A stretch of 64,000 nt of DNA from Anthoceros angustus (lineage: Eukaryota > Plantae > Anthocerotophyta), in NCBI GenBank assembly GCA_010909165.1, contig MU008172.1, forward strand, positions 1,054,001 to 1,118,000. The letters run 5' to 3'. Positions 1,991-59,224 of this stretch are shown here, piece by piece. The number at the start of each line of letters is the position of its first letter. The stretch's first letter is position 1. The notes under the pieces are model-generated. The model saw nothing but the letters and a program-made list of their open reading frames with translations, was not told the origin of the DNA and ran no database searches. Both the position numbers and the translations under genes were made by a program.

Positions 1991-2066
1991 TCCAGCCTGC
2001 AGCGGGCATTCCTCTGCATTTTCCTCAACCAGATCAGCAGCCAGATCCCATTCTGATCTATAGGTC

Positions 2067-6712: not shown

Positions 6713-6840
6713 CCCGGCCTACTCCGGAGTTCAGTCCGAACTTATTTCCGCCTACTCCGGAATTCAGTCTGGACTCACCCCGGCCTACTCCGGAATTCAG
6801 TCCGAACTCACCCCGGCCTACTCCGGAGTTCAGTCCGGAG
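6713..6840. repeat. 33-bp tandem repeat x4 (CCCGGCCTACTCCGGA(G/A)TTCAGTCCGAACT(T/C)A) near the LTR 5' end
   Basis: Visible directly. It produces the shadow peptide repeat PRPTPEFSPNS. Confidence 0.9.
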
Positions 6841-18700: not shown

Positions 18701-18762
18701 GCTCCGGACACGGCTTCTTGAAAACATGAGGATGTTCTCCAGCTGCTCAACACCGGGCACAA

Positions 18763-22240: not shown

Positions 22241-22280
22241 GACGAGTGCGGACACGGTGCAAGGTAGTAACTTTATAACG

Positions 22281-26774: not shown

Positions 26775-26787
26775 TACTCCCTTCTCA
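26775..26787 (-). other. Polypurine tract of element 1 (TGAGAAGGGAGTA)
   Basis: Abuts the 3' LTR and is identical to the PPT of element 2. Confidence 0.9.
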
Positions 26788-26809
26788 CTGCTGCCTCCGC
26801 CAACACTAA

Positions 26810-31838: not shown

Positions 31839-32047
31839 CGCTGCGGTGGGATGAGGAACCGCCCCTTACCACCGCCGACTTGGTGCGGCCCTCCTCTCGA
31901 TCCGACAACCCACCACACTTACGCTGGTGTCCTCCCGAGCTCCGCTCTCACGCTCACGGAGCGCGCAACAACGTCCGACTCTCAAGAAACTCTTCCTTAA
32001 CTACCTCACGCCCTCCACGCATCCACGCTACGGAACGATTTCATTCC

Positions 32048-32058
32048 CAACGGCGCCA
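32048..32058 (-). other. Primer binding site of element 1 (TGGCGCCGTTG, tRNA-Asp type)
   Basis: Lies 3 nt after the 5' LTR end (...GCCACA-TTT). Matches the first 11 nt of the Athila-type Asp PBS TGGCGCCGTTGCCGGGGA. Confidence 0.85.
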
Positions 32059-32605
32059 AAATGTGGCGCGACTTCACGATGGCGCCGGGCGCGACAATCC
32101 CGTGTCGTTGTAGGAAGAAGTCCGTCCCAAGGGAATGATAGTTACGCGCTTGTGATTCTACCGCCGCCTGCTCGCCTCAACACACATACTCCTAACTACT
32201 CACAACGTTTCACCGACAGCCCGGTATGGCCAAACGCTTAAGGACCTGTTCGTCCGTATCGCTCACATCCGCCACTCACATCCCCTTCCTCTCTCCTCAC
32301 GCTACACTCCTCTTTAGAAAGACGCGGTTACATCCTCTCCTCCTCCGCTGCCGGGCCTCTCCGTCCGGCTCAGACGCCTCCCGAGTTCCTCCGGCTCACA
32401 CGTTCGCCCGCTCGGCCGGGCTGCCCGGACGAGCACGGGTCACCACCCTTCCCCGCACACACCACAACACGTTAGGTCCCACACGGGACCGATCAATCTC
32501 CCGAGCCGCCGTGCTCGTGACTCAGACTCACGTTAGCAAGAAGACACACAAAGGTCCGCAAGAACGCATCAACACCAAGAGAAAGATGATTTATCTGAGC
32601 CTTAG

Positions 32606-32615
32606 CCCTCTTATA
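32606..32615 (-). promoter_or_regulatory. Candidate LTR TATA box (TATAAGAGGG)
   Basis: About 550 bp before the LTR 3' end. Also at 22851-22860; the element 2 equivalent is GATAAGAGGG. Confidence 0.4.
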
Positions 32616-33199
32616 CTACCAAGGTCGGCGCCTTTATTACACCTCTATTCGAAATGAGGGCCACCAGGTACCCTAACCACCGCCTACTACCCCTATTCCA
32701 CCCTACCCGGTGGTGGGCTGGATGGCCTCATTCCTTCTTGGCACCGGCGCCCAAAGCCGAGCTCCGCGGGCGCACCCAATCGGATGATCCGCGAGGCGGA
32801 CCCTTCCTCTTCCCGAGGGTCCAGTCGCGCCACCGGCGGCCTCGACAACGGGTCACCACCAAGTCCTCCTCGCCTCCCTCTTCTCTCTCCGGGGGCCTCG
32901 CGCAAGGGGCCTCCAAGGGTTGGATCTCAGGATGGCTCTCCCCACTCCCGAGTTTGGACCTCGGACTGCCTCGACCGAGTCCGGACCTCTAGGTCCGGCC
33001 TTCCTCCGGGTCCGGCCCCCGCCTCCTCCTCCGAGTCCGGCCCTGGGACCGGATCCTCCGGGTCCGGCCTGACCCAACCCTTCGGGTCCGGACCTCGTGG
33101 TCCGGATCTACTAGAGTCCTGGATCCCTAAGTCCAGATTGGGGCCGGACTGATCCGCCTGAGTCCGGACAAAGTCCGACCTCGTGCCTCGGCATGCCTC

Positions 33200-35794
33200 C
33201 TCACCGGCTGGTACGGGTTCATCCACCGAGCCTCCTTGGTTCCCGAATGCCCGCTGCACCCTTTCCCTTCAAGATCCTCCCTCGTCCTTCCATGCGAGGG
33301 TGCCGAGGGCTTACCTCCTGCAGGCGCCTTCCTCCTCCCTCGTCCTCCTCGCCTCCTCCGCCACACAAACAGGCCCTAGGACTCCGCGTTGTGCCCGGTC
33401 CGCCTCCTCTCGCCTCCTTCCATCCTTCCGAAGTCCACCTCCCGCCTAGGGTGGCGCAGACCTCCAGAGCCTTGAGGAGCTCAGGCGGTCGGAATCGACT
33501 TGCCAATCGCCTCCACATGAGCCCGAGCACCCGACTTCTCCTCCAAAGGTGCTCCAGAATCGAGCAGATCGCACCGCCTGCCTCCGTGGCCAAGCTCACC
33601 ACCAGGCGGGCGGACTCCCTTGAGGCCGCCAAGGCCCTCACATTTGCAACCTTCGCCGCCGACGCTCTCCTCCTCCTCCGTTGTTGCTTCAGCCTCCATT
33701 ATGGAGCCGAGCTCCCTTCCGCTCGCAACCGGACGAGCAACTTTTCCTCCAAAGGCTTCCTCCCTTCTTCTATTCTTTCCCGAGGTCCTCCACTTCCTTC
33801 TCCAGCGGGCCGGTATCCCCGTCCGACTCGGCTTCCGCCACGCCCCGCCGCAACCTCGACGCCGAACTCCTTGCACCGCCATTCTCCTCCGTTTCAAGCG
33901 GAGCTGAGGCGTTCCACCTCTCGTCAAGTCTTGGATTCTCTGAGAACCCCGCCCGATGCATCTTGGAGTTGCAACCCAAGGTGTCCTTGTTGTCCTCCAG
34001 CCCGCCACGCCTTCTACCTCCTGCACTGCACTCGAGGTCCCCAATCTCCCGGTCCGGCCTCCGCCTCCTCACGGCCGACTGCTTGCTCCGCGCCACTTGC
34101 TCGGCCTTCGATTGCGGCCTCTGGCCGCCTCTCCACCGGCCCGATCACGCCGATAGTGATCGCGATCGGCCTCGCCGTGGCCTCCGCCTCCTTGGCCACC
34201 TTCACCGAGCCTCCAGCCTTGGCTGGGTCCGGCCTCCGCCTCCTCCTCGCCTCCTCGCCTCCTCCACTTCCTTCTCGCCTCCTCGCCTCCTCCGCCCGCA
34301 GAGGTCCTCCGCCCGCTTGGGCCTCCTCGCTTCACTGCTCCTCCACTGAAGGAATTTGGTCCGTCCTGCGGATGGACCAGACCTCCTCCTCCGCCTCCGG
34401 CTTCCTCAATCCCGCCGAGAGCTTGGCCTTCCTTCTCGCCTGGCTCCTCCAACCGCCTCGGAGGAGCACCATGCGCCCGGTGGCTTCCACCTCCGGGCCT
34501 TCTCGGCCATCCCGCATGCATTCTGCAGCATACCGTCCATGACGGTAGCTGTGACCCGTGTTTCCTCCACGGCCGCCGTGAGGCTCCCACAAAGTCCGAG
34601 GGAGCGATCTCACGGTCCGAAGGACCTCCATACCGCCGGAGTAAGTCCGACTGGGTTCTCCGGACCTAATCAGGGACCCTTAGGTCCCGAGGCCGAGCTC
34701 CGAGCTTCCCCTCCTTGGCCCTTTTGGCATGCGAGCTCCTTCTCCGCCTTTTTCCCGGGCTCGGCGGAGGTGATGGAGTCCGGAGCACGCCTTTTGCCCC
34801 TTCCGCCGGGCGATGGACCAGACCTCCAAGGTCCATCGCCTTGGGTCCTCCGCCTCCACCTCCGGGCCTTCTCGCCTCCCATCGCTTCCTCCGCTTGCCA
34901 CCCGGGAAGAGGTACTGCACCGACTGGGTGCCGCAGCCGTGGTCTTGCGCTTCGGCTCTCCGTCCGCGGGCCTCACCGAGTGATGGCCGTGGCGGGCCGC
35001 TGGGCCGGCCGCTCGCCGGATTGGCTGCTCGTTGGGGCACCGAGAGGGAGGCGGAATTGCTTCCCATACTGGGTGGTGAGGGGTCCGCCCACGTATGGAG
35101 TCCGGAATCCTCCTCCGCCTCCTCCCGAGTCCGCTTGGTTTTCGACGACTGCCTCCTCCGCCTTGCCCGCCTCCACTTCCGGAGGGCCTCCTTCCGAGCG
35201 CTCGCTCAAGCCTCCCGAGGAGTTCAAATGCCCCATACATGGACTGCATGGGGATGCTGATGATGGGCTTCGCCCGAGCTTGAGCCTCGCTAAACCGGCG
35301 AAGATAATCCTTCCCAGTCCGCCCTCTTCCCGCGTGCGGGAACACTAATAGATTATCACCAAGGTGATCCACCTTGGTGAGTAGGTTCCGTGACGATGAT
35401 CCGCCACCGCTCGACCGCCCAATGTGTCGGATATCGCCCAACCGCTGGTGGTCCGCTGGCCCTGTGCCTTAGCACTGTCGGACCTATCTTCCCTTCGCCT
35501 TGAGGGGCCCGCACCACTCCCCTCTTCCTCCTTGGGCGGTTAGGCCTCAGACCTCAAGGTCCATCGCCTTGGGTCCTCCCGAGGTTCTTGACCGCACCTC
35601 CTTGTTGACCGCCAAAGATCTTCCGCAAACTCCGACCGTAGTGACATCAAATGTCCGACCATTTGGAACACTCCAAATGCCACTCCCGCACCACCCCGCT
35701 CGGAGCCAGGCCCAAAGTCCGGATAGCGCCGGTCACAATGTTGCGCTCCACAAGGTTCCATGGCTCCCAAACTTCCGGGCTTTTTGGGTGCCAT
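33200..35794 (-). pseudogene. LTR-encoded ORF, 5' LTR copy of element 1
   Basis: MAPK..PEVWEPWNLVERNIVT, EDPRRWTL, NLLTKVDHLGDNLLVF. Frameshifted; end approximate. Confidence 0.7.
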
Positions 35795-38329
35795 CGCCTT
35801 CTTCTCCCTTGGTTGCCGCCGCTTGTCAAGACCGCCGCACGTTGAGCTTCTCGCGCTTCGCCTCCGACCTCAACGGTGAGCCGCGCGCGAAGACGTCTGA
35901 GTGTCCCACGAGATACCGCCAGAGAGCCGGACTGCGGAGCGCAAGGGATCGCGAGAATTGTCTCGAGGCTGCGCAGCAAAATGACCTTCTTCCGCGACCA
36001 CGCCGGAGTAATCACGGGCGCCCCGTCAGAATCGCCGAGGTCTCGCATGGCTTACTCGCGCTGCCGCCACAGACTGCCTTACTCCGCCTGCAGCCCCACG
36101 GGCGTGAATACCGCTATAACGGCCTCGCAAGGTTACGGCCCGACCACGCATGCCCGCCTCCACTGTGGTCGCCCACGTGGCGCCGCCACCCCCACGCTCC
36201 AACTTCTAAGTTACCTTCTCGGCGCATTTATCCCGCCTCGGTCCCGGAGTGGGTCCGGACTTACCCGTCCGCCCGCCATCGAGGTCTGGCACGCCTCACT
36301 CCGGAGTCAGGAGTATACTCCGGAGTGCCGTCCGGAGTGCTAACCGGGCTTATTTCCTCCTTTTTCGCCTCATTTTATCCTTCGCCTCCCACACAAAACA
36401 AAATCCTACCTAATTTCTAACCCCTGGGAAGTCCGTAGTCCACATGCCGCTCCCAAGGAAATGTAGAGCATGTGGAGTTCTATGTGCTACGGTATCGACG
36501 CCACACAGCTAGCCAAGCCGTCTTGACAAAGCATGGCAAAGCGGCAAGGTGTTTCCTATTGGCGAGGGTGATCATGGCTTATTATTACGAGGGAGCCAAA
36601 TTCGAGGGGGTGTACCAGGCTCCTTAACTCGTGTCCGTGGTCACCCCACCGCAATAGAGGAGGACATGGTTTTGGCAACAAACTTGATGATCGCCATCCC
36701 AAGGCTACCCATAAGACATCCGTGTATTGAGCCCCACAATCGCCAAATATCCGGACTGGTGGCTAAGAGGGAGCATGAAGGAGGGACTTGACGGTCAAGT
36801 GATTGTCTTGGCTGGTATGGTCGGCACGTCGGTGGTTTTGAGTTTCTAGGCACCCATGCCTAAATGTAGGGTTGTTAAGGAGGCCCGTTTTTCTTTTTGG
36901 TTGATCCACATACAATGGTCAGATAAACTTGCCGACATGAGGCAACAAGATTTACCTGCACTTGACATTAACGAAACATGCCTTCAACCCGTCTTGCATT
37001 AGCACATGCCACACAACATCCTTTCCAACTCGTTCACAGGGAGGGATCAAGTTACGAGGCTTGGGTAACAACTACATCCAAGCACGCCGCCTAAAAGGGC
37101 TTCGGCAACAACATGCACGCGCATGTCCGCTATCCAAAGAATGTGGAAGACGGCCCCAATCACAAGACCGTAGACAAAGATGCTTCCATTATGAGTCAAA
37201 ACCTGCCATCAAGAGTCGCCACTTTCCACCGCCATCCTTGATTCATTGTCTATACACCGCCCATGTCACAATCATCCTCAACAACACGACATCCCTTCCT
37301 GCGCAATTGCCGAGCGACTTGAGGTCTTCCGGCATATGGCGATCCACGCCCCTCTTCGCAAGCCCGATGCCGCGCCACCGCCTCACGGCCGATCTTGGAA
37401 CTTCGCATTGCGGCCAAAACCTTCCATCAAGCTCCTTGCCTCGGCTGCCCATGGCTTCTCCCGCATCAAGGGCGGAACCGAGGAGCTGCGTGTGGGTTCG
37501 ACAAATCACAGACCCAAGTTAGAGCACATGGCCCATTGTAGCTGTATGAAGATGCAGCGACTTCCCGCTTGTGGTCACACGCCATTTAAAGCCCACTATG
37601 TGCCACCAAGGACAAGGCCTGTGGACACCACGCCGTGGGGGTCAATTGGCGAAAGTGGGCTTCAACGTGGCGGATAATCATGTGTCCCGGAGACCAGAAC
37701 TCAACTTTTAATGCAAATGCCCTTGTAAGCAAATTCCACGGAATAAGTGTTTTGCATGAATGCAATCGGCATAGTGCATCCCGCTTGGACCTTCAGGACC
37801 CCTAAAGAAGCCATGTATCAACGTGTTAACATGGACAAGACCCATTTGCAAAATAACGGTGCACTGGCGCCACCGTTAGTGACAACTGTTAGTGAGCAAA
37901 TAGTTAGTGACCACGCTTGGTGGTCGCGTGGTTATGTTTGCCAAACGTGGCCTCGTCAATAGGGAGACCAATCATTACGCACATGTGCTTTCTAGCACAA
38001 GGCTCGAGTTGCTTTCTCTTACCAAGGTGGTCACTCCGAGAGCTTCCCCTCTAAAGAATAGCACTCCACACCTTCACTATCGTACACCCGCAATTCAATC
38101 TTGCAACTTAGGACACCGGCATGAAGGGTGCACTCCTCATTCTCTTCACCAGTGTACAGACGCCGTCGTGTGGAGTGTGTACCGCCAGAGACAACCACTT
38201 CTCCCACTCGGAATGTTGAGTTGCTCCAAGGGCACCACTTGTTACAGAGGGTTTGCTTCAACTGTGCAACGCAAGGTAAAACAATTGCCCCTCGCCTTGA
38301 TGTCGTACAACAAACGTATCACCAACTTC

Positions 38330-39900: not shown

Positions 39901-40175
39901 CCAATATCAAAACGTGCAACACACTTCCAACGACGGACACGAGGTCACCAAGTGATGCCAACTAAAATGGAACAACTCCAAAACATCACCAAACCGTGTG
40001 ATCACCATTCCATCATCCACAACACCAACACATCCACCACATCACTAAGTCAAAACAGAGCTCCACCTACTCCATGACATCACCAATCCGTCCACCTTAT
40101 CACCATGCCATCATCCACATCACCAACGCATCAATCAACAAGATAGCTGACCACCACATCACCAGCTGTCCCGCA

Positions 40176-43100
40176 TGTGGGCTATGCACTTCCCTGGGGA
40201 GTTAAGAAACAAGTAGGGTTTCTGTTTTTTAGGATTGAAGGATAAATAAGGAAAAGGAGGAATAAATTGGGGTAGCGCCGGACGAGGCTCGAGTATACTC
40301 CGACTGAGTGAACAACGGACCCGCACCACTATGGCAAGCTCCGACTACGCCGAGTAACGGATAAGTCCGGAACCCACCCAGTGTCAAAACAGGATAAGTA
40401 CGCCAGGAAAGTAACCTAGGAGCGAGGCGTGAGGATGACGAGGCGGCGCCACGTGGACGGCCCCGAGTGGAGGTCGGGCATGCGAGGGTCAGACCTGCTG
40501 AGGCCGCAGGCAGTATTCACGCCCGCGGTCGCGCGGGCGCGTAAGGCGCTGCAGGTAAGCGAGGGTCGAGTATGCGCACTCGCGCGGACAACGAAGAGGC
40601 GCCTTCCGCCCAGCTTATTTCCACAAGCGCCAAGGAGGGAGGTGCGCAGCCTCCGCATAATCACAGCCCCTTGCGCCCGCAATCCGGCTCGCTATCTTTT
40701 GGGCGCCACGCTAGAGCGCAAGGTTGGAGCAATAACGCGCGAAGGAGGAACATCGTGCCGACGCCAGCCACAAAGAGAACAAGAGGAGGAGAAAGCAATG
40801 GCACCCAAAAGCCGGAAGTCTGGGAGCCATGGACCGTGGAGCGCAACATTGTGACCCGCGCTATCCGGACTTCGGGCCCCGGCCGGAGGAAGTGGAATTG
40901 GTGCAGAGTGGCATCCGGACGTGTTCCAAATGGTTCGACCTTTGACGCTACTCTAGTCCGGAGTTTGCGAAGATGTCGGGCGATCAACAAGGAGGTCCGA
41001 TCCAAGAACCTCCGGAGGACTGAGGCGATGGACCTTGAGGTCCCGAGGATGGCCTACAACCGCCAAGGAGGAAGAAGGGCGGTGCCGAGCCCCTTAAGGC
41101 GGGGAAGATAGGGCCGCCAGCCGCGATGCCGAGGCTCGAACGCAGCGACAACCAACGGATGGTTGATATCCGATCCGACAATGAGTAAGGGCGGTAGCCC
41201 GGATCATTGTCCATTGAACTCGCCACCAAGGTGGATCACCTTGGTGATAACTGCTGGTATTCTCGCATGCGCCCAGTGGGAAGAGAGCGACCGGGAAGGA
41301 TTATCTTCGCCTGGTTCGTGAGGCACGCAAGCTAAGGAGCGAGAAGCCTCATTATCGGCCGACCCCATACCGATTCATGTATGGGGACATTTCGAGCTCA
41401 AGGAGGGAGAGCTTGAGCGGCGCCCGGGCCGGAGGCCCCGCCAAGTAGAGCGTGCAAGGGCGCCCGAGGTGGGGGGGCCCTTCAAGACCAAGCGACTGGA
41501 GGAGGACGAGGGATTCCTGACTCCATACCTGAGCGAACCCCCACCACCTGTGGAAGTTTGGGAGGCGATTCCTTCCTCCTTTTGGTGCCCTCCGAGCACC
41601 AAGAGTGAGGGAGCGATGCCGAGGGCGCGGCGGCCCGCACCGGCACAGTTAACAACCACGACCGCCGAGCCCCGACGAACTCAACGGGAGCCAAGAGGCG
41701 AAGACGGTGCCGCTTACCAACGCAAAGACCTCGAAGGTGAGACTTACCCCGCCCACGAGTGGCAAGAGGTCAAGAGGCGTAAGGAGGGCGAAGGGACGTG
41801 GCAAGGTGGAGGTCACCGGCAGCCCCCACCTCGAGCCGGGTCCTGCCCCCGGCTGTGAAGGGGCAAAAGAGCTTGCTCCTGACCCCTCACCTCCTCCGAG
41901 CCCTGTGAGAAAGAGGGCACAAAGGAGTTAGAGGCCAAGAGGGCCAAGAGGGTGAGACTCGGACTCACCACTCAGACCCGAGGGTCCCGATTAGGTCCGA
42001 GAACCCACCCCGACTTACTCCGATCAAGGGTATGGAGGTCCTCGGATCGAGAAATGCCGGCCCCACTACGGACTTTGTGGGGCCTCACCGGGCCGTGGAA
42101 GAAACACGGCGAGTCCTGCTACATGGACGGAATGCTTTGGGGTCTCGTGGTACAATGGAGAAGACCTGTGAAGTGGAGGCCACCCGAGGAGGATGGTGGA
42201 ACCCAAGAGCAAGTGAAGGCGGCCTGTGGGGCAAAGGAAAGGCGGAGTCCCTCGCCGGATCGAGGAAGGGAAACGGGTGGAGCGCGAGGCCCGGTTCAGC
42301 AGATCGTTAAGGTTCTTCAATGAACAAGCAAGCTCAGAGGCCCAAGCGGGAGGACCTTTGCAAGAGGGAAGCGCAGCAGAGGCGGAAGAGGCCCGGCACA
42401 AGCAGAGAGAGCTCGGGACCGGAGGCGGCCAGAGCGCCAAGTGGGGCGGCCTGTAAAGGCGGCGAAGGAGCTCAAGTCAAAAGAGCGACCGGATCACCAT
42501 GCACGTGATCGAACCGTGGAGAGAGTCAGTGAGGCTAACTGGCCGACAAAGGCGGATGCAAGGGCCATGAAGGAGGAGATGGAGGCCGACTCGGGAGATA
42601 GAGATCTCCGGCACAGCAGGAAGTAGAGGGAGGCGGCAGCAGATGGAGGACAAAAGGACACGCTGGAGCTACAACCCAAGATGCGCTTGAGCAGCAGTGA
42701 TTCTCAACGAGAGAATCCACGACTGAGCACGAAATAGTGCAGGCCCTCAAGACGGAGGAAAATCGCGACTATCCAAGGAGTTGGACGCTGCTGCCATGTA
42801 TGAGCCGGAGGAAGTCCGAGCCTGGACGAGGTATCCGATCACCGGGAGAGGGAGTCATGAGCTAAAGGCCGTAATGAACGGAGGAGCGAGCACCGGAAGC
42901 GAAGAAGCCGGGTCCACCGAGAAAGGCGGAAGGGAACGCGCTATGGCGGTAAGTCGGGCAATGGAGAAAACGACGGAGCCGGAGCAGTGGAGCAACAGCA
43001 CCGCAGGAGGTGACCGAGGCCGCCTTGTAGCCTCGTGATACACCCCACCACAACCGGGCAGGAGAGGTGGCCCAACAAGCCGGCAAATTTTAACACTTAT

Positions 43101-44516
43101 GGCGGAGGGAGTATCGGTGCCCGCACACGTGGAAGAGGCACCAACAAGTCGATCTGACTTTGCCTATTACCACCGAGCTCCGGCGTGAGAAGCCTCTCGA
43201 CTCACAGAACGGACGGACCGGAAGGCTCAAGGAGATGAAGGCCACGGGACAAAGACAGGACCCTAGTGGCCCTGCTTGAGAGATGACGGAGCGGGAGAGG
43301 AGCAAGGAGCAGAACGAGGGAGCGGATGCGATCGAGGCACACCCCTCACCATGGAAGGAGGGCCAACGAAGGAGTACCGGGCGATCGGGAACATGGAGGA
43401 CTGAGGAGAGCCACGAGGAGTCCCGTGAGGGAGGAAACCCGGTGGAGTCCGACTTTGTCCGACCCTGAGGGAGGCCGATCAAGTCCGGACGAATAAGTCC
43501 GACTCAAGTCCGGACCGAATAAGTCCGGACTCAAGTCCGACCTGAATAACCGACCGAGGTCCGGACCCCAGACAAGGCTCGGACCTAGCCACGACCTGTG
43601 AAGGGACTCAAGTTCGTGAGTCGAGACAGACCTCGAGGACCGGATCGGGCAAGAAGGAGGAGCCCCTTCGACTTACGCTTAGGGGAGCAGAGAATGGTGG
43701 CCCCACCGCGGCGACCTGTGGGGAGGCCAGGGAGGATGACGCCGTGGTAACGGCGGTTGTCGATCACGCCGAGCCCAACCCGGTGATTCCGGGAGAGGAG
43801 GGGCCTGCCACGGATCATCCGATTGGGTGCACCACAACCGACGGGGATTGACCACCCATTCCGAGGGCCTGTGACCTTCCCACCCCACATGGCGAGATAG
43901 GGGAAAATAGGATGGTAGGCCGATTAGGGTATACCGAAATGGCTATCACCGTAATAGGGGTGTAAAGACGCCACCTTGGGCGCAGATAAGAGGGCCGATT
44001 CTAGTAAAGCATCTTTCTCTTGGTGTTGATGCCGCTGCGCACTGTGAGTCTTCTTGCTAACGTGAGTCCCGAGTCACCGAAAGGTGCACGACCCGGGAGA
44101 TTGATCAAGGTCCCGTGACGACTTAACGCTGGTGGTGTGCGGTGGAAGGGTGACTGATGTGCCGAGAGCCGCGTCCAACACCGAACGGACCGAACGTGAG
44201 CCGGAGGAACTGAGGGTGTGTAGAGGACGGAGAGGCCCGCGAACAACGAGGAGGTCCGGATCAGAACTCGCCTTTTCTAAGACCAAGAGTGTAGAGAGGA
44301 GAGGAGAGAGGAAAGGATCGAGGATGCGAACGATACGGACGCGAACGGGTCTCAAACGCTTGGCCATACCGGCCCGACGGTGAACGTAGTGTAGTAGTTG
44401 AGTGTGTTGGTGAAGGAAGAAGAATCACCGAAACGGGCCTATCATTCCCTTGGGAACGGACTTCTTCCTACAACGACACGGATTGTGGCGCTACCGCTAT
44501 CGAAAGTCCCGCCACA
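40176..44516 (+). repeat. 5' LTR of element 2 (4341 bp)
   Basis: TGTGGGCTATGCACTTC...CCCGCCACA, repeated from 49713. Confidence 0.92.
40798..43470 (+). pseudogene. LTR-encoded ORF, 5' LTR copy of element 2
   Basis: MAPK..EVWEPWTVERNIVT, NGWLISD, TKVDHLGDN, GRIIFA, IHVWGHF, then a charged or coiled-coil-like region. Frameshifted; end approximate. Confidence 0.7.
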
Positions 44517-44519
44517 TTT

Positions 44520-44536
44520 TGGCGCCGCTGTCGGGA
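44520..44536 (+). other. Primer binding site of element 2 (TGGCGCCGCTGTCGGGA, tRNA-Asp-like)
   Basis: Lies 3 nt after the LTR-terminal CA. Confidence 0.85.
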
Positions 44537-44730
44537 ATGAAATCGTCCAGAAAGTGCGCGGGAAGAGAAGGAAGTGAAGGTGAAGGCGACCGAAGAGGAA
44601 CCAGGATCGGACGTGAGCGCCTCCGAGCCAGAGAGGAGAGAGAGACGCCCAACGAGAGAGCACCGCCGTGGGAGAACGTTTGTCGAGGAAGAAGTAGCAC
44701 CACGCCCAACGGAAGAAGGTAGGACAACCG

Positions 44731-47700
44731 ATGGCGCACGATGGCCCCTACCTCGACCAAACAAGCGACTCCATATTCGGAGGGAAGAAGGAGGGATGCG
44801 AGACCTTTGTGGAGGACTTCGTCCAAAGCCAACTTCAACGGAGAGGGAGTCGACGCACTCATCCAAATTTTCCAAGGGGTTCAGAGCCTCAATGGTATCG
44901 GAGAAAGTACACCACCGAGAATGCCCCACCCGCCGCTTGAAGCTTTGAAAATGCCTTCTTAGAACGGTTTCGAGGATCGACCAGAGGGGTATGTATTATC
45001 AAAGTTGGAAAATCAAGCGAGGAAGAAGGAGAAGGGCTCAGACATCGAGCGGTTCTATGCCCGAGGATCGGCATCCAACCCATACCACGATGCAAGCGGT
45101 ACTGGTTCGCGGCCTAGCCAAACCCATGGCAGCACGCCGCCGAGAAGGACGTGCAAGGCGGCGGCCGAAAACTACGAGGAATCGCTACATCGAGGATAAA
45201 GAACCGCCAAGGAGGCAAGAAGAAGAAGAAGAAACGGGGTTCGGACTCCGAGGAGGAAGAGTCTTCGAGGAGGAGGAAGACCGAGGTGTCTCTGAGGAGG
45301 AGGAGAGTCAAGAAGAGACGAGGTCTCTAGCGAGGAAGAGTATCCCGCAAGAAGAAGAAGAAGAAGCAAAAGAAGTGGTAAGAAGGAGGTGGTGACACCA
45401 AGACCGTCCGAGAAGCTCACCGACCCGACTCCTCAAGGAGGTAGCTGTCCAGGGAGGAAGTGATAAAGAGAGTAGAGGACGACAACCAGTGTTAAGGACC
45501 GAGCGCGGACCACGGCGAACGCATCTCGTGTGCCGGTCAACAAGATCGGCCATTCAAATCCAACCGCCTCCGGCATCAAGTGGACTACGAGGAGGAGGCC
45601 GAGGAGCAATGGGAAGAGGCCTATCGCATGAAGCCCTCCGGGCCGCGATATCCCAAAACCATGTATCCGCCAACCGGAGGTCCATCCAACAGCCCCACCG
45701 ATGCAAAGACCGCATGGGAGCCCTTCGTATCCTCCGCACGTGGTCTTGGAACTGGGAACCCCGCCATTACTCCAACGCGCCGCATACCCAACGCAGGTAA
45801 TGGGGACTTCGACGGTGGTGGCGATGGTGGGGGCATATGGCAAGACGCTATGTCCCAACCCCGCTCAAGGACGGTGCGATATGCCACACCAAGCGGAGAA
45901 CCCGACCACCAACGCCACCTCCTAAGACCAAGGCTCAGAAGATGCCACCATGAGTGGGAAGAGGGAAGGGATGAACAAGTGGTACGTGGAGGAAGGGGTC
46001 GAGGAGGAGGAGGAGGAGGAGGAGGAGGCCGAGGAGGAGCGAGGAAGAAGAAGAAGAACAAGATCGGAAGGGACACCAAAGGAAGGCAATCAAAGGAAGG
46101 AGAGATCGCAGCCGACGGAGCCCCGAGGAAGTTCTCCACAGATGGGAGAAGGCCCCCGCCGACGTTAGCTTCCACCGGACGTAGTCCGGAGGTGACCGAG
46201 ATGTTGCAGGAGGAAATGCGCAAGCATCCGAGAGAATACCGAACACGACCGGGGGAGGGGAGGATGAGGGATCCTCGATTGGGGGTAGACCCGCCTTTAA
46301 TGTGGCGACTGATGAATCAACAAAGCCACCTTGTGGATAACCCGATCCAAGAGGTCCGGGGCCGTTAGGGGAACCCAGCAAACCCCAGGGAAGCAAGGAA
46401 GTGAGGGGGTGGTGTCCCATACCACGCCAGTGGTACAAGTGGAGATTGGATGTATCATCAAGGATGTACTGCTGGACACGGGTCCGAGTCAACCTCATCA
46501 CGCCACGACGAAAATTGGGCTTCACATCCTTCAACCTCAACGAAGACTCGAGAATGGCGTATATGTCAAGAAGAGATCCGCGGGAGTTAACCGAGTCTTG
46601 GCCACCATAGCACCCTACATTTTGTTGTGATCAAACCGCCGGACCATTAGGGTATGAGGTGTTGCGCCATGGCGTTGGCCTGCATAAAGCTACACTTTGG
46701 AAGGAAGGAGATTCACTTCAAGCCGTGGACTGGGACCCTAAGGTGCGAAGGGAGGGTTGCTATCACCGGAGCAAGGACACCTATTGGGGAAACCGTGAGC
46801 ACTACAGGGTATACTCGAGGACTCCACGGCGACGAACAAGATAGCTCGAGGAGGCGACTTTCGCCAAGATCCGGGGTCCGAGGAGGAGATGGACTACCAG
46901 GGATGCCTTTGGTGCGAAGTGATTGTTTTGAGGAACAAGAAGAGGAGGCTGGAAGGAAGTGAAGAGGAGAAAAGATAAGAGTGGGGACATCAAGGAGTAA
47001 CACGATTTCACGACGAGCTCTTCAGAATGGGGATGCGAGAGGACGATCCCGAGAGGAGGACGAGGGGTTTGGACGCAGCGAAAGACGGAACGGGAGACGT
47101 GAACCCGGACGACGTGGAAGAAGTGGAGGTCCGCAAATTCTCAAGTTTAAGAAAGGCATGCCTCCTGACCAAGGAAGGACTAAAGCACTGGGGAGTTTTA
47201 TGAGGTGTTCGCCTTCAAGGTCACGACATGAAGGGCATTCAAGAAGTGGGAGAGCATAAGATCGATTTGAAGCCGTGAGCCAACCGAACAATACAAGCTC
47301 AACCCCAAGTATTCGATCAAGGTGAAGGAGGTCCTTGATAAGTACCGGAGGCAGACATCATTTTCCCCATCACAAGCCGAGTGGGTCGCCGATTGTGGTG
47401 GTTCCCAAGAAACACAGACAAATTGGTATGCCAAGATTGAGGAAGCTCAACGAACGAGAAGGACCACTTCCGATGCCATTCAGAGACGACATTTTGGACA
47501 AGGTGGTCGGACGGACTACTTACTCCTTCCTCGGATGGCTACTCCGGATACAACCAATTGCACCTAAGGGAGTTTGACCGACAAGACGACCTTCACTACG
47601 GAGTGGGGTACGCTTGCCTACAAGAGAAGTGCCTTTGGGATGACCGAGCGCCTGTGGTCGCTCATGCGATGGTGACCAACGCCTTCCGTGACTTCGAGGG

Positions 47701-49680
47701 ACTTCATGGAGATATTCTGGATGATTTTTGTGTGCATGGGGAGCAGGACAAACACCTTGGGCATCTAAGAAGGTGCTTGAGCGCGCCGGAGACTCAATTG
47801 AGCCTACACCCGAGAAATGCTACTTTGGAATGACGGAGGGAATCTTGTCGACATCGTGTCGCTGAATCGAGGTGGACCAGACAAGGTCCGGTCATCCGCC
47901 TCCACCACGACGAACCTAAAGGAGCCGAGAGGTTTCGGAATGGTGGGATACTACCGGTTTATTAAGGACTTTAAGAGGGCGGCTAAGTTGATGTAATCCG
48001 CTGAAGGAGGAGGTTTGGACCGTCACGTGGAGCGAGAGGAGGCCTTCGGATTTACAACACCTTGGTAAGCGACTGCCCTAAGAGGACCGGATCGAGCAAG
48101 AAATTTCATGTGTATGTAGATGTGTCCGCTTTGCTATCGGAGTAGCCGTGGGAATGCACGAAGGATTATCCCGTATACTACCGGACGATACCACCCACGC
48201 TGAACGAAAATACACAACTACAGAGCGCCAAGCACCGGGTATGGTATATGTCGCCAAGAAATTCGACACTACCGCTACCTGGAGTTTGTGTTCTATGTAG
48301 ACCACTTACCAAGCATCCGGTGAATAAGGCGGACCGTCCGGACGGATAGCAAGGTGGATATTGTTGCCGCAGGAGTTCACGTCAAGTGGAAACAAGACAA
48401 GGGAGGCAAGACCAAAATGCGATTTCGTCACGATTGAAAACAGCAGTGTTGAGAGATCGAAGATGCGCTCCTGGATGAGACATTGGTTGCCGCAGAAAAG
48501 TACAACCGGAGGAGCCCACCGACCAACCCCAAGCTACGAGAACTGCAGCCTTAGTGTAAGAGAAGGGAGGGTCCGCCGGTCGTCCGACCCACGAAGAAAT
48601 GGAGCGTACCTGGGAATGGAGCTTCCCAAAATCGACTCGGATGAGGGAGGCATTCGCACTATGCTCGACCCTTCGTAATGTACAACGGTGTGTGTTCAAA
48701 TTAGGGCCTGACGGAGTAGAACGAAGGTACTTGCAACCGCAGATGTGGAGCGGCCGGGAATGCACGAAGGATTGGGGAGGACACTACGCAAGACAGTCAC
48801 CACCAAAAGATTTTGAAGCGGATACGTGGCCAACAATGTATGGGGACACCCACCGCTTAGAAGAAGTGTGATGCTTGTCACGGATCGGAAGCCAACCCCG
48901 ACGACACAAGGCCGCTAGTACCGATATTGGCACCGCACCTTCAAAAGTGGGTATTGACTTTGTTGGACCTATACAACGACAAGACACACAAAAGGAGATA
49001 CATCCCGTGGCAACGACACCGCACTGTGGGTAGAGGCGGTAACAAGAACGGACTCGCAAACCGTGGCCAAATTCCACGAGAACATCATAACCCGGATGAT
49101 GTCCGCATTGGTAAGTGATAGGGGAACCCATTTCCTTAATGATGTGGTGGCCGCCATGACGGAGTATTTCGCATCAATCATCGCAAGACGGCACCCTACA
49201 ATCCTAAGGCCAATGGGTTGACAGAGAAGACAAATGGGCTCATCCGCAGATCTCGAATAAACTCAAGGAACTACGCCCATGATCGATACTTGCCATCCGC
49301 ACTGTCGACAGCAGAAGGTGACCACACAACGGACTTTACTTGACACCTCCGTAATGCCGTGAGAGTTTGAAGTGCCCACTTTCGAGTAATGATGGAAGGA
49401 GTGATGAGGAAAGCCACCGAGCGACTTTGGGGTTTGTTCAACACAGGAGGAAGAAGCTCACAAGATGCAATAGCAACCAACAAAGATTTGGATCACGCCG
49501 AATCGGAGTATGTAAAGGGGGACCGCCTCCTTTATGATAGTCATATGCATTTTCCGTGCAAACTTCACCGAGATGGATGGGTCCGTACCAAGTGGTGCAA
49601 GTATATGACAACGGGTCCGTCACACGATGCCTAGATGGAGAGCTGCCCACCCGGTGAACGGGTGGCGGTGAAGAAGTAGT
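44731..49680 (+). pseudogene. gag-pol: gag-pol polyprotein of element 2 (frameshifted)
   Basis: Protease VLLDTG..VNLIT; RT SPIVVVPKK, PMPFRDDILDKV, KTTFTTEWG, ILDDFCVHG; RNase H FHVYVD, ERKYTTTER; integrase KWGIDFVGP-like, VSDRGTHFLN, APYNPKANGLTEKTNG. No chromodomain before the PPT. Confidence 0.95.
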
Positions 49681-49699
49681 GTTGGCGAGACGCCAATGA

Positions 49700-49712
49700 T
49701 GAGAAGGGAGTA
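49700..49712 (+). other. Polypurine tract of element 2 (TGAGAAGGGAGTA)
   Basis: Immediately precedes TGTGGGCTATGC at 49713. Confidence 0.9.
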
Positions 49713-52700
49713 TGTGGGCTATGCACTTCGGGAGTTAAGAACAAGTAGGGTTTCGCTTTTTAGGATTGAAGGATAAATAAGGCGGAAAAGGAGGAATAAA
49801 TTGGGGTAGCGCCGGACGAGGCTCGAGTATACTCCGACTGAGTGAACAACGGACCCCACCACTATGGCAAGCTCCGACTACGCCGAGTAACGGATAAGTC
49901 CGAACCCACCTGTGTCAAAATAGGATAAGTACGCCAGAAAGTAACCTAGGAGCGAGGCGTGAGGATGACGAGGCGGCGCCACGTGGACGGCCCCGAGTGG
50001 AGGTCGGGCATGCAGAGGGTGACCAGAACCTGCTGAGGCCGCAGGCAGTATTCACGCCCGCGCGCGCGCGTAAGGCCGCAGTAAGCGAAGGGTCGAGTAA
50101 GCCATGCACTCGCGCTACGGACAACGAAGAGGCGCCTTCCGCCCCATTACTTCCACAAGCGCCAAGGAGGGAGGTCTCACGCAGCCTCCGCAATCCTCAC
50201 AGCCTTGCGCCCGCAATCCGCTCGCGCTATCTTTTGGGCGCCCAGAGCGCGCATCAAGGTTGGAGCAACAACGCGCGAAGGAGGAACATCGTGCCGACTC
50301 GCCAGCAGCTACAAGAACAAGAGGAGGAGAAAGCAATGGCACCCAAAAGCCGACGAAACTGGGAGCCATGGACCTCGTGGAGCGCAACATTGTGACCCGC
50401 GCTATCCGGACTTCGGGCCCCGGCCGGAGGAAGTGGTGGGAGCAGAGTTGGACGTGTTCCAAATGGTCTGACCTTTGACATACTAGTCCGGAGTTTGCCC
50501 GAAGATGCCGGGCGATCAACAAGGAGGTCCGATCCAAGAACCTCCGGAGGACCCGAGGCGATGGACCTTGAGGTCCCGAGGATGGCCTACAACCGCCAAG
50601 GAGGAAGAAGGGGCGTGCCGAGCCCCTTAAGGCGGGGAAGATAGGGCCCACGGGCCGAGGCTCGAACGCAATGACAACCAACGGATGGTTGATATCCGAT
50701 CCGGATACCGAGTAAGGGCGGTAGCCCGGATCATTGTCCATTGAACTCGCCACCAAGGTGGATCACCTTGGTGATAACCTCGCTGGTATTCTCGCATGCG
50801 CCCAATGGGAAGAGAGCGGACTGGGAAGGATTATCTTCGCCCGGGCCGAGGCACGCAAGCTAAGGAGCGAGAAGCCTCGCCATCGGGCCGACCCCATACC
50901 GATTCATGTATGGGGACATTTCGAGCCCTCAAGGAGGGAGAGCTTGAGCGGGCGCCAAGGCCGGAGGCCCCGCCAAGTAGAGCGTGCAAGGGCGCCTGAG
51001 GTGGGGGTCGCCCTTCAAGACCAAGCGACTCGGAGGAGGACGATCGAGGATTCCTGACTCCATACGCCCTGAGCGAACCCCTCACCACCTGTGGAAGTTT
51101 GGGAGGCGATTCCCCTTCCTCCTTTTGGTGCCCTCCGAGCAAGACAGAGGGAGCCGATGCCGAGGGCGCTGGCCCGCACCGGCACCAACAACCACGACGG
51201 CCGAGCCCCGACGAACTCAACGGGAGCCAAGAGGCGGAAGACGGTGCCGCTTACCAACGCAAAGACCTCGTAGGTGCAGATTCTTACCCCCGCCCACCTG
51301 AGTGGCAAGAGGTCAAGAGGCGTAAGGAGGGCGAGAAGGGACGTGGCCCAAGGAGCAGGAGGTCACCGGGCAGCCCCACCTCGAGCCGGCCTGCCCCGGC
51401 TGTGAAGGGGCAAAAGAGCTTGCTCCCTGACCCCTCACCTCCTCCGAGCCCTGTGAGAAAGAGGGCACAAAGGAGTTAGAGGCCAAGAGGGCCAAGAGGG
51501 TGAGACTGACCACCACTGTGACCCGAGGGTCCCGATTAGGTCCGAGAACCCACCGACTTACTCCGGATCGGTATGGAGGTCCTCGGATCGAGAAATGCCG
51601 GCTCCACTACGGACTTTGTGGGGCCTCACTACCGGCCGGAGGAAGGGAATTGGTGCAGGAGTGGCATCCGGACGTGTTCCAAATGGTCTGACCTTGACTA
51701 CCTAGTCCGGAGTTTGCCCGAAGATGCCGGGCGATCAACAAGGAGGTCCGATCCAAGAACCTCCGGAGGACCCGAGGCGATGGACCTTGAGGTCCCGAGG
51801 ATGGCCTACAACCGCCAAGGAGGAAGAAGGGGTGCCGAGCCCCTTAAGGCGAAGATAGGCCACCACGATGCCGAGGCTCGAACGCAGCGACAACCAACGG
51901 ATGGTTGATATCCGATCCGCCGAGAGTAAGGGCGGTAGCCCGGATCATTGTCCATTGAACTCGCCACCAAGGTGGATCACCTTGGTGATAACCTCGCTGG
52001 TATTCTCGCATGCGCCCAATGGGAAGAGAGCGGACTGGGAAGGATTATCTTCGCCTGCCCAGTGAGGCACGAAGCTAAGGAGCGAAGCCTCGCCATCGGG
52101 GCCGACCCCATACCCGATTCATGTATGGGGACATTTCGAGCTCCTCAAGGAGGGAGAGCTTGAACGGGCGCCAAGGGGCCGGAGGCCCCGCCAAGTAGAG
52201 CGTGCAAGGGCGCCTGAGGTGGGGGTCGCCCTTCAAGACCAAGCGACTGGAGGAGGACGACCGAGGATTCCTGACTCCATACGCCCTGAGCGAACCCCTC
52301 ACCACCTGTGGAAGTTTGGGAGGCGATTCCCCTTCCTCCTTTTGGTGCCCTCCGAGACAGAGGGAGCCGATGCCGGAGGCGGCCCGCACCGCAGAAACAA
52401 CCAACCACGACGCCGAGCCCCGACGAACTCAACGGGAGCCAAGAGGCGGAAGACGGTGCCGCTTACCAACGCAAAGACCTAAGGTGCAGACTTACCCCCG
52501 CCCACGGAGTGGCAAGAGGTCAAGAGGCGTAAGGAGGGCGTAAAGGACGCCCAAGGAGCAGGAGGTCACCGGGCAGCCCCACCTCGAGCCGGCCTGCCCC
52601 GATGTGAAGGGGCAAAAGAGCTTGCTCCCGACCCCTCACCTCCTCCGAGCCCTGTGAGAAAGAGGGCACAAAGGAGTTAGAGGCCAAGAGGGCCAAGAGG

Positions 52701-55700
52701 GTGAGACTGACCACCACTGTGACCCGAGGGTCCCGATTAGGTCCGAGAACCCACCGACTTACTCCGGATCGGTATGGAGGTCCTGGATCGAGAAATGCCG
52801 GCCCCACTACGGACTTTGTGGGGCCTCACCGGCCGTGGAAGAAACACGGCGAAGTCCTGCTACCGCCATGGACGGAATGCTTTGGGGTCTCGGTACAATG
52901 GAGAAGACCTGTGAAGTGGAGGCCACCCGAGGAGGATGGTGGAACCCAAGAGCAAGTGAAGGCCTGTGGGGCAAAGGAAAGGCGGAGTCCTCGCCGATCG
53001 AGGAAGGGAAACGCCGGGTGGCGGAGCGCGAGGCCCGCGGTTCACAGATCGGTTAAGGTTCTTCAAGCGAACACAAGCAAGCTCAGAGGCCCAAGCGCGG
53101 AGGACCTTGCAGCGAAGAGGGAAGCGCAGCAGAGGCTAAGAGGCCCGGCACAAGCAGAGAGCTCGACTGCGGAGGCGTGAGGATGACGAGGCGGCGCCAC
53201 GTGGACGGCCCCGAGTGGAGGTCGGGCATGCAGAGGCCAGTGCCTGCGAGGCAGTATTCACGCCCGCGCGCGCGCGCGTAAGGCCGCAGTAAGCGCGAGG
53301 GTCGAGTAAGCCATGCACTCGCGCTACGGACAACGAAGAGGCGCCTTCCGCCAGCTTACTTCCACAAGCGCCAAGGAGGGAGGCTGCCAGCCTCCGCAAT
53401 CCTCACAGCCTTGCGCCCGCAATCCGCTCGCGCTATCTTTTGGGCGTTTTAGAGCGCGCGCATCAAGGTTGGAGCAATAACGCGCAAGGAGGAACATCGT
53501 ACCGGACCGCCAGCTACAAGAACAAGAGGAGGAGAAAGCAATGGCACCCAAAAGCCGACGGAGTCTGGGAGCCATGGACCTCGTGGAGCGCAACATTGTG
53601 ACCCGCGCTATCCGGACTTCGGGCCCCGGCCGGAGGAAGGGAATTGGTGCAGGAGTGGCATCCGGACGTGTTCCAAATGGTCTGACCTTTGACAACCACT
53701 CTAGTCCGGAGTTTGCCCGAAGATGTGGCGGCGATCAACAAGGAGGTCCGATCCAAGAACCTCCGGAGGACCCGAGGCGATGGACCTTGAGGTCCCGAGG
53801 ATGGCCTACAACCGCCAAGGAGGAAGAAGGGGCGTGGTGCCGAGCCCCTTAAGGCGAAGGAAGATAGGGCCGCCCAGCGTTGAGGCTCGAACGCAATGGA
53901 CAACCAACGGATGGTTGATATCCGATCCGCCGGATACCGAGTAAGGGCGGTAGCCCGGATCATTGTCCATTGAACTCGCCACCAAGGTGGATCACCTTGG
54001 TGATAACCTCGCTGGTATTCTCGCATGCGCCAAGGGGAAGAGAGCGGACTGGGAAGGATTATCTTCGCCTGCGGGCCAGAGGCACGCAAGCTAAGGAGCG
54101 AGAAGCCTCGCCATCGGGCGACCCCATACCCGATTCATGTATGGGGACATTTCGAGCCCTCAAGGAGGGAGAGCTTGAACGGGCGCCAAGGGGCCGGAGG
54201 CCTGGTAGAGCGTGCAAGGGCGCCTGAGGTGGGGGTCGCCCTTCAAGACCAAGCGACTGGAGGAGGACGATCGAGGATTCCTGACTCCATACGCCCTGAG
54301 CGAACCCCTCACCACCTGTGGAAGTTTGGGAGGCGAGATTCCCCTTCCTCCTTTTGGTGCCCTCCGAGCAAGATGTGAGGGAGCCGATGCCGGAGGCGGC
54401 TCCGACCGGTAATGCAACAAACAACCACGACGCCGAGCCCCGACGAACGGGAGCCAAGAGGCGAAGACGGTGCCGCTTACCAACGCAAAGACCTCGGGAG
54501 TGATTCTTACCCCGTGAGTGGCAAGAGGTCAAGAGGCGTAAGGAGGGCGAAAAGGGACGTGGCTCAAGGTGGAGGTCACCGGGCAGCAGCCCCACCTCGA
54601 GCCGGCCTGCCCCGGCTGTGAAGGGGCAAAAGAGCTTGCTCCCGACCCCTCACCTCCTCCGAGGGAGAAAGAGGGCACAAAGGAGTTAGAGGCCAAGAGG
54701 GCCAAGAGGGTGAGACTGACCACCACTGTGACCCGAGGGTCCCGATTAGGTCCGAGAACCCACCGACTTACTCCGGATCAAGGTATGGAGGTCCTCGGAT
54801 CGAGAAATGCCGGCCCCACTACGGACTTTGTGGGGCCTCACTACCGGCCGGAAGAAACACGGCGAAGTCCTGCTACCGCCATGGACGGAATGCTTTGGGG
54901 TCTCGGTACAATGGAGAAGACCTGTGAAGTGGAGGCCACCCGAGGAGGATGGTGGAACCCAAGAGCAAGTGAAGGCCTGTGGGGCAAAGGAAAGGCGGAG
55001 TCCTCGCCGATCGAGGAAGGGAAACGCCGGGTGGCGGAGCGCGAGGCCCGCGGTTCACAGATCGGTTAAGGTTCTTCAAGCGAACACAAGCAAGCTCAGA
55101 GGCCCAAGCGCTGGGCGGAGGACCTTGCAGCGAAGAGGGAAGCGCAGCAGAGGCTAAGAGGCCCGGCACAAGCAGAGAGCTCGACTGCGGAGGCGGCCGG
55201 CCAGAGGCCAAGTGGGCGAGGCCTGTAAAGGCGGCGAAGGAGCCTGCTGCAAAGAGCGACCGGATCACTACAGACGTGATCGAACCGTGGAGAGAGTCAC
55301 AGCATGACCGAGGTTACTCAAGGCCGTGACAAAGTGCTATGGAGGTGCAAGGCCAAAGGAGGAGATGGAGGCCAGACTGGGAGATAGGAGATCTCCGAGC
55401 ACACCGCAGGAAGTAGAGGAGAGGCGGCAGCAGATGGAGGATGAAGGACACTGGAGCTACAACCCAAGATGCGCTTGAGCAAGCAGTGATTCTCAACGAG
55501 AGAATCCACGACTGAGCACGAAATAGAGCCAGCTCCTCAAGACGGAGGAAAATCGCGACTATCCAAGGAGTTGGACGCTGCTGTATGAGCCGGAGGAAGT
55601 CCGAGCCTGGACGGAGGTATCTCACTGGAGAGGGAGTCATGAGCTAAAGGCCGTAATGAACGGAGGAGCGAGCACGGAAGCGTAAAAGAAGCCGTCCGAG

Positions 55701-58700: not shown

Positions 58701-59224
58701 CTGCACTCAGTCTTCTTGCTAACGTGAGTCCCGAGTCACCGAAAGGTGCACGACTCCCGGGAGATTGATCAAGGTCCCGTGACGACTTAACGTGTGGTGG
58801 TGTGTGCAGGAAGGTGAGAATCGGTGACCTGTTCGCCGAGAGCGCGGTCCAACGCCGAGCGAGAACGCGTGAGCCGAGGTGGGAGGGTAGAGCCCGGACG
58901 GAGAGGCCCGCGAGCAACGAGGAGGTCCCGATCACAGACTCGCTTTTCTAAGCAAGACAAGTGTAGAGGGAGAGAGGAACGGATGCGATGAGTGAACGAT
59001 ACGGACGACGAAAACGGGTCTCAAACGCTTGGCCACACCGGCCTGCTCGTGAACGTTATAAATAGGGGTGTAAACGAAGATTGAGTGTGTTAAGGTGAAG
59101 TGGACCAAGAAAGGTGAGAATCAAGCGCAAAACGGCGGAGCTATCATTCCCTTTGGGAACGGACTCATACCACAACGACACGGATTGTGCGCGCCTACCG
59201 GCCCATCAACAAAGTCACGCCACA
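49713..59224 (+). repeat. 3' LTR of element 2, expanded to ~9.5 kb by internal re-iterations
   Basis: The sequence jumps back within the LTR at ~51630, ~53172, ~56500 and ~58605. 57990-58605 is a mosaic of flanking fragments. Confidence 0.85.

Follow-up and report, generated by a model that had tools for sequence, protein, structure and literature searches.

A sense-strand gene inside the giant long terminal repeats of a Gypsy retrotransposon in Anthoceros angustus and its possible role as an anti-silencing factor

The window analysed here is a stretch of 64,000 nucleotides from Anthoceros angustus (Anthocerotophyta; GenBank assembly GCA_010909165.1, contig MU008172.1, positions 1,054,001 to 1,118,000 of the forward strand), and it carries Gypsy retrotransposons whose 4.3-kb long terminal repeats (LTRs) contain an open reading frame (ORF) in the sense orientation. 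The explanation that we favor, and rate slightly above an even chance, is that an Athila-like extra gene lies wholly inside each LTR and encodes a DNA-binding anti-silencer acting on the element's own LTR. The demonstrated part of this explanation consists of the LTR limits, the position of the ORF inside the LTR, the selection on its N-terminal domain (N-domain) indicated by codon comparison, and an intact ORF of 630 amino acids (aa) at the same place in a relative of the same lineage.

The long terminal repeats and the gene within them

According to self-comparison and a motif search of the window, by which the LTRs, the primer-binding site (PBS)-like sequence, the polypurine tract (PPT), and the target-site duplications (TSDs) were assigned, three insertions can be resolved: element A on the forward strand, and elements B and C on the reverse strand. 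The 5′ LTR of element A (40176..44516, +) is 4341 bp long with TGT..ACA ends, and behind it lie a PBS-like 18-mer beginning with TGG (TGGCGCCGCTGTCGGGAA; 44520..44537, +, from the motif search), an internal gag-pol region of 5196 bp (44517..49712, +) with the domain order reverse transcriptase, RNase H, integrase (RT-RH-INT), and the PPT GAGAAGGGAGTA (49701..49712, +), which stands directly 5′ of the 3′ LTR at 49713. The TSD CCGCA flanks both ends of the element (40171..40175 and 59225-59229, +). Element B has the same plan in the opposite orientation and an identical PPT: its 5′ LTR (32062..36444, -) has the ORF ATG at 35794, its internal gag-pol region (26775..32061, -) measures 5287 bp, and its 3′ LTR (~22339..26774, -, one end being approximate on the right) has the ORF ATG at 26157. 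A whole element measures about 14 kb (~13.9 kb). The TG..CA LTRs, PBS-like site, PPT, TSD, and RT-RH-INT order of pol are those of a Ty3/gypsy element, and the 4.3-kb repeats are genuine LTRs. As the initial annotation stated, they are nearly as long as the internal region (4341 bp against 5196 bp in element A).

The 3′ LTR of element A (49713..59224, +) contains internal partial re-duplications, with ATGs at 50277 and 53541 and a headless copy from 51632. The further ORF copies initially listed after 49713 belong to these partial tandem re-duplications within one 3′ LTR, possibly produced by misassembly, and are not extra insertions. In this LTR and its flank (49713-59445), re-duplications were noted at 51632, 53172, 56500, and 58391-58613 versus 59225-59445; they may represent misassembly or a tandem LTR structure.

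Insertion C (5164..7013, -) is only 1850 bp long, begins with TGTGGAC, ends with GTCACA, and is flanked by the TSD GGGTA (5159-5163 and 7014-7018), while its empty site is spanned by one short-read contig (run X1). The deletion, the TSD-flanked termini, and the empty site together identify C as an internally deleted solo LTR rather than a full copy. Its ORF begins at 6235 (-) and retains about 1.07 kb of the gene, with 282 codons in one frame, interrupted by one frameshift and four stops. The initial statement that every copy holds a 2.7-kb ORF therefore fails for C.

The ATG of the ORF lies 623 bp from the LTR start in the 5′ LTR of element A, 651 and 618 bp in the 5′ and 3′ LTRs of element B, and 779 bp in C. 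Offsets of 618-779 bp place the ORF within the true LTR, which settles in its favor the boundary check that the initial annotation had named; within the LTR, the ORF may fall in U3 rather than R. Three parts can be distinguished in the 5′ LTR of element A, all on the forward strand. The conserved N-domain and the start of an acidic linker (40798..41545) are frameshifted in the assembly, are under purifying selection, and represent a remote homologue of the N-domain of the relatives described below. A low-complexity and probably coiled-coil part follows (41546..42875), in which the sense translation outscored the antisense translation in 4/4 comparisons. In the claimed 3′ end (42876..43470), coding support is limited to one common motif, AHVEEA..YYH. 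The peptide motifs by which the ORF was initially recognized are found in the window copies.

For the comparison between LTR types, the A and B copies were translated with X at frame breaks and set against copy C. All six A and B copies aligned with C at 54-61% identity over 206-241 codons, with scores of 294-416, as against 34-45 for five shuffles and 30 for the antisense strand. In the frame of C, mismatch rates were 0.33-0.42 at third codon positions and 0.18-0.23 at positions 1-2 (6/6 copies from two independent elements), and the synonymous share of differing codons was 40-46%, compared with 7-18% in the other two sense frames (6/6 copies). The mirror antisense frame, which has its third positions in common with the frame of C, gave a synonymous signal just slightly lower, and an upstream control region had no consistent codon-position bias. 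The third-position and synonymous excess over ~280 codons indicates that the first ~280 codons are under purifying selection between LTR types. When A and B were aligned in translation across 40798-42875, the sense strand scored above the antisense in 6/6 alignments, as it did in both pol controls, and the antisense was ahead in 4/4 flanking controls. By these comparisons coding support is graded: the first 0.8 kb is well supported, the next 1.3 kb modestly so, and the last 0.6 kb not at all. The initial proposal of a conserved sense ORF in the LTRs is supported as to a conserved and selected N-domain located inside the LTR, and not as to the continuous frame, the length of ~900 aa, or the coding of 42876-43465. 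An antisense reading, based on antisense frames of 348-475 aa in element B, was rejected, as the intact relatives match the sense frame.

Relatives, predicted fold, and TCCGGA arrays

The motif layout of the LTR protein presumably resembles that of unnamed proteins of bryophyte genomes. A short degenerate motif pattern based on this likeness and searched in metagenome contigs led to three loci (L001, L002, and L003), each of which shows a single LTR start. L003 has an open pol of 828 aa with RT, RH, and INT in a Pfam scan, and its pol stop is followed by 24 bases, a purine run, TGTGGG, and, 573 bp further in, an intact sense ORF of 630 aa. The pol of the window is colinear with that of L003 at 46-49% identity (49% over 684 codons for element A). 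L001 is a near copy of L003, with the pol stop, purine tract, and TGTGGG 5′ of the ORF; in L002, TGTGGG comes after a 26-base non-pol flank, and an intact ORF stands 702 bp in. The purine tract and terminus suggest that the ORF of the relatives also lies inside an LTR. Seven further homologues of 492-671 aa, taken from 999 candidates, are without Pfam domains.

A profile of the relatives' N-domain run against 642 six-frame pieces of the window matched copy C alone (16.5 bits; best of 2000 shuffles, 6.9), and hhalign of the window against the relatives gave a probability of 68.7-73.9% and a score of 40.6, while the highest of 40 column shuffles reached 21.0 (19/20 relative rows kept). Between C and the relative P0008, 42.7 bits were obtained over 171 columns. 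According to these data, the N-domain of the relatives and the window protein are remotely homologous, and the shared position of the gene within one pol lineage backs this assignment. The initial idea of an accessory gene that each insertion carries twice and that can survive in solo LTRs is supported by the selection on the N-domain, the TSD-flanked solo LTR, and the intact relatives with the gene in the same place; it is not supported as to the function of these particular copies.

Two features of the LTR starts and leaders were noted alongside. A terminal hairpin with arms TGTGG.. / ..CCACA occurs at L001:174-195, L002:27-48, L003:2525-2546, and 26754-26774 (-) of the window, and creates another att-like word, also ending in CA, ~22 bases from the LTR start; 4/5 window LTR starts are without the hairpin, the 3′ LTR of element B being the one that has it. 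At L002:540-615, 5′ of the ORF ATG, a CT-rich tract stands with the word TAGGGTTAGGGT, which we take to be telobox-like, as in plant gene leaders. This leader tract hints at a promoter of the ORF's own.

The C read-through had no match in Pfam (E<=10; PF03078 and PF20167 included), in 1.84 billion representatives, in a 5.8-billion collection, or in metagenome contigs. Pfam, with searches at E<=10 or E<=1, likewise matched neither the extra ORFs of L003 and L002 nor any of the alignment members (9/9 without a match), and 76 stop-free LTR pieces gave just two weak unrelated matches. A database search with the window pol piece was without a match, the relatives' alignment had none in viral or prokaryote contigs, and an Rfam search of the window sequence returned nothing. 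Atlas, which works with language-model features, placed residues 1-235 of the relative P0006 with an unnamed cluster at 0.90, ATHILA (PF03078) at 0.89, and Transposase_32 (PF20167) at 0.88, where all three are leads (a score <0.9 is a lead only) and the latter two rest on 154-155 features in common. The resemblance to Transposase_32 and ATHILA that was initially seen in the motif layout thus finds an echo in these leads for a relative and none in Pfam.

The AF2 model of the L003 N-domain, made from nine sequences, is mostly helical (pLDDT 70.7, pTM 0.72). In a full alignment against 48,161 PDB chains, its top match was VANC21 in complex with DNA (9LNK) at Z 6.3, root-mean-square deviation 5.0, and 198 aligned positions, a Z that is middling, falls within the range that the tool calls common, and belongs to the model of a relative rather than of a window copy. 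The runner-up chain reached Z 4.1 with 63 aligned positions, and the VANC21 match spans the whole domain; the weight of the match comes from this coverage, from the gap to the next row, and from its being a plant transposon accessory protein. A single-sequence model of window copy C reached a pLDDT of 39.2, and its fold search gave generic helical rows only. As judged from the predicted structure of a relative, the LTR protein is likely a DNA-binding regulator of the VANC/plant mobile domain (PMD)/Athila type that would probably serve as an anti-silencer. Elsewhere in the window, beside a presumed CACTA-like gene, a 118-aa frame (17964-18317, +) has a GKRVNW motif that resembles GKRADW of the LTR protein; it had no meaningful Pfam match and was missed by the relatives' profile at E<=1, and it may belong, as a distant relation, to the accessory group of the LTR protein.

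TCCGGA-rich tandem arrays stand directly 3′ of the ORF in element A (43475..43567, +; candidate binding sites), in the 3′ LTR of element B (23235-23381, -), and in solo LTR C (6713-6837, -). TCCGGA ranks first among the 64 palindromic hexamers in 5/5 LTRs (the 5′ LTRs of A and B, C, the LTR part of L003, and L002), and its observed count was reached in 0/200 Markov simulations for four of them and in 7/200 for L002. It is enriched neither in the internal regions of A or B nor in other window DNA. By analogy, the arrays may be the sites of the LTR protein. A block conserved between A and B (43950..44010, +), which has AATAAA-like and TATA-like words, is a candidate promoter/poly(A) region.

Proposed mechanism and its alternatives

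Under the favored explanation, the LTR gene would be kin to the Athila accessory ORF that stands between pol and the 3′ LTR, and would have come to lie within the LTR through plus-strand priming at a point 5′ of it: with the PPT upstream of the gene, reverse transcription would copy the gene into both LTRs. Transcription of the gene would start at a promoter of its own within the ~600-bp leader, and the genomic RNA would depend on the A/B-conserved block near 43950-44010. Like VANC21, the protein would contact DNA, here through its N-domain, the coiled coil would oligomerise, and the TCCGGA arrays would be the binding sites, such that the protein would bind the element's own LTR and counter silencing. 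Sequencing error would account for the majority of the frame breaks in A and B. A bolder form of this proposal, which we regard as tentative and on the whole doubtful, is that an unnamed, widespread Athila-like Gypsy lineage moved a sequence-specific anti-silencing gene with the VANC fold into its LTR together with TCCGGA target arrays. If that were true, each LTR, even a solo one, would be self-sufficient, encoding the factor and holding the sites for it; VANC would have its first counterpart in a retrotransposon, and the presence of the VANC/PMD/Athila fold in transposons would date from well before the dicots.

A number of observations weigh against the favored explanation. The link to the relatives is remote, and the window profile clearly finds only 1/7 of them (P0008). 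In the structural work, Foldseek with the L003 N-domain model found nothing at E<=0.001 in PDB or BFVD, a second structural look found nothing at Z>=2, HMMER against PDB sequences returned coiled-coil noise only and did not recover VANC21, and the middling Z and lead-only Atlas scores given above count in the same direction. With regard to coding, the antisense scored higher in 2/2 translated A-versus-B alignments of 42876-43465, which leaves the coding of the last ~600 bp unsupported, and a frame-free period-3 test picked up gag and pol but failed on the N-domain, and it gave one positive result on the upstream control. TCCGGA is also enriched in the pol of L003 (12 observed, 3.3 expected) and is common to distant lineages; the motifs of VANC, in contrast, differ from family to family and lie mostly in non-coding DNA. 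Finally, no window copy has a continuous open frame for the LTR ORF: the A and B copies have 12-18 frameshifts and 0-1 stops per ~280 codons, and C has the breaks described above. The breaks recur, with 6-7 per copy common to all four A copies and some positions found also in B. Among the listed short-read indels in the N-domain, 2/5 fall exactly on a break and 3/5 within 5 nt, and the pol breaks that coincide between A and B (8/39) are at the chance level (7.1 expected), which does not favor purely systematic error.

These recurrent breaks are what would be expected if the gene was once functional and the A and B families now carry a dead version, with real frameshifts and the ORF as a passenger. 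We consider this improbable, even though the decay of C and a frameshift density somewhat above that of pol (4.9-6.6 per 100 codons, as against 3.6-4.5, with 4.46 in A and 3.58 in B) point the same way; the reference used to count the pol frameshifts was more distant, so that their number would be underestimated. A dead gene sits poorly with just 0-1 in-frame stops per A/B copy, and differences between sister LTRs are dominated by indels (4.8-9.0 per 100 bases between 5′ and 3′ copies, with substitutions at 2.2-3.3%, a ratio of 2.1-3.2 indels to 1), as are differences from the short-read contigs of run X1 across 40100-45200 (30/30 bins covered, 274 indel rows, 35 other-letter rows). Moreover, the CAG/CTG ratio is depleted in A, B, and the neighboring presumed CACTA element (0.42-0.53) but not in C (0.89) or L003 (0.95), as expected from base loss in assembly. 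We infer that the window is error-prone long-read sequence, and the reading frames of A and B are likely continuous. It is also conceivable, although rather unlikely in our estimation, that the LTR gene is real and a structural kin of Athila, Transposase_32, and PMD proteins but has another job, structural or in integration targeting, with TCCGGA as a compositional quirk of the lineage. A fold in common says nothing of function, and MAIN, which belongs to the same fold kin, promotes silencing (PMC5418596); the enrichment of TCCGGA in L003 pol fits a quirk, and tandem expansion accounts for part of the counts in A, B, and C. Such a different job accords less well with a top structural match, over the whole domain, to a transposon-encoded DNA-binding anti-silencer, or with motif arrays in non-coding LTR parts of three diverged types. 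That the 4.3-kb repeat is an artefact of misassembly, or of tandem elements with a common internal region, and that the ORF is simply a 3′ ORF of the usual internal kind, is very improbable and largely refuted. The noise of the assembly, the re-duplicated 3′ LTR of A, the single LTR start of each of L001-L003, and the mere 26-base flank of L002 would allow it; against it stand two separate elements of opposite orientation and the same plan, a PPT that adjoins the repeat start and a PBS that adjoins the repeat end, the 5-bp TSDs of A and C with the empty site of C in an X1 contig, and the order found in L001 and L003, where the ORF comes after a pol stop, a purine tract, and TGTGGG.

A gene inside an LTR is easily missed by surveys of plant extra ORFs. 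Each insertion yields two copies of it, and it outlasts LTR-LTR recombination, the host's main route of retrotransposon removal. Its study bears on what Athila ORF-1, Transposase_32, and the PMD proteins of Gypsy elements do, and the intact 630-aa relative, the VANC21-like predicted fold, and the candidate 6-bp site make the existence of sequence-specific retrotransposon anti-silencers directly testable.

Other features of the window and comparison with known systems

The remainder of the window includes decayed transposase pieces (12900-16600, -), presumably CACTA/En-Spm-like according to their motifs, with tandem duplications at 13660-15884. At 256-2077 (-), three long frames of 296, 144, and 201 aa are CpG-poor and not CHG-depleted, and Atlas (ORF 256-1143) yielded only weak uncharacterised eukaryote clusters for them. 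A repeat-like region (7921-10465) has long frames on both strands (227-308 aa), and head-to-tail duplications of ~960 and ~245 bp lie at 20354-22242 and 18761-19224, respectively, the ~960-bp pair differing mainly by indels.

The extra ORFs of Athila, Tat, and Ogre elements normally lie between the LTRs, and genes within LTRs are known mainly from retroviruses. In MMTV sag, HIV nef, and the U3-overlapping genes of foamy viruses, reverse transcription likewise places a protein gene of the LTR at both ends; the viruses concerned, however, infect animals, their proteins are unrelated, and their ORFs and LTRs are far shorter. For plants, published accounts put extra ORFs in the internal region (PMC7264820; PMC6317226; PMC11728184; PMC3485330; PMC11963269) and group them by whether they lie towards the 5′ or the 3′ end of the element (PMC6317226). 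The portions available of PMC7466625 and PMC12885004 mention no LTR-resident ORF, and no description of an LTR-resident gene was found in the plant literature as partially accessible, with incomplete coverage of subscription journals. Retrosat2, RIRE3, and RIRE8 likewise combine LTRs >3 kb with an extra ORF (PMC3485330); this ORF0, however, is upstream of gag-pol, belongs to a lineage related to RIRE3/8, and, in the excerpted text, is not placed inside the LTR (PMC3485330). Phygy and Selgy are, like the elements described here, non-chromovirus Gypsy elements, of moss and lycophyte, with a polyprotein that fills the internal region, but they have 4-bp TSDs, a tRNA-Trp/Ala PBS, and a size of 4.4-10 kb, and no extra ORF is listed for them in the part of PMC6317226 at hand, whereas the window elements have 5-bp TSDs and measure ~14 kb.

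Athila, a non-chromovirus OTA lineage of Ty3/gypsy, offers a closer parallel. Athila elements have a tRNA-Asp PBS, which the PBS-like 18-mer of element A may resemble. The likeness consists of an L003 pol with RT-RH-INT and without a chromodomain or archaeal RNase H (Pfam scan), the 5-bp TSD (CCGCA for A and GGGTA for C), the size of ~13.9 kb, the sense extra ORF 3′ of pol, and the Atlas leads to both families. The accessory ORF of Athila sits between pol and the 3′ LTR (PMC7264820; PMC11728184); here, in contrast, the PPT directly follows pol, and the ORF is inside the LTR and present twice. Like the PMD proteins (MAIN/MAIL1 and Gypsy PMD-A), the LTR protein is a Gypsy-borne accessory domain, and it may share their structural link to VANC. 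PMDs are found in Gypsy elements and have been described from angiosperms (PMC5418596), but no PF10536 match was found here, and PMDs inside LTRs are not reported in the partial texts. VANC21 of VANDAL21, an Arabidopsis MULE (PDB 9LNK), is the best structural match of the relative's N-domain, and both systems probably join a globular domain to a coiled coil and have a short motif repeated in tandem in stretches of the element that do not code for protein. Structural homology between VANC and MAIN has been described, and coiled-coil pentamers have been predicted for VANC and for proteins with the Athila domain (PMC13547354); the targets of VANC form tandem repeats (PMC5735166). VANC is encoded by VANDAL/MULE DNA transposons and is described as dicot-specific (PMC13547354), whereas the present gene is in a Gypsy LTR; no sequence match to VANC21 was obtained, nor any DUF1985 match in L003, L002, or the alignment members (9/9 without one). 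The LTR protein is thus neither a Pfam member of ATHILA or Transposase_32 nor a VANC by definition, and it likely works like VANC.

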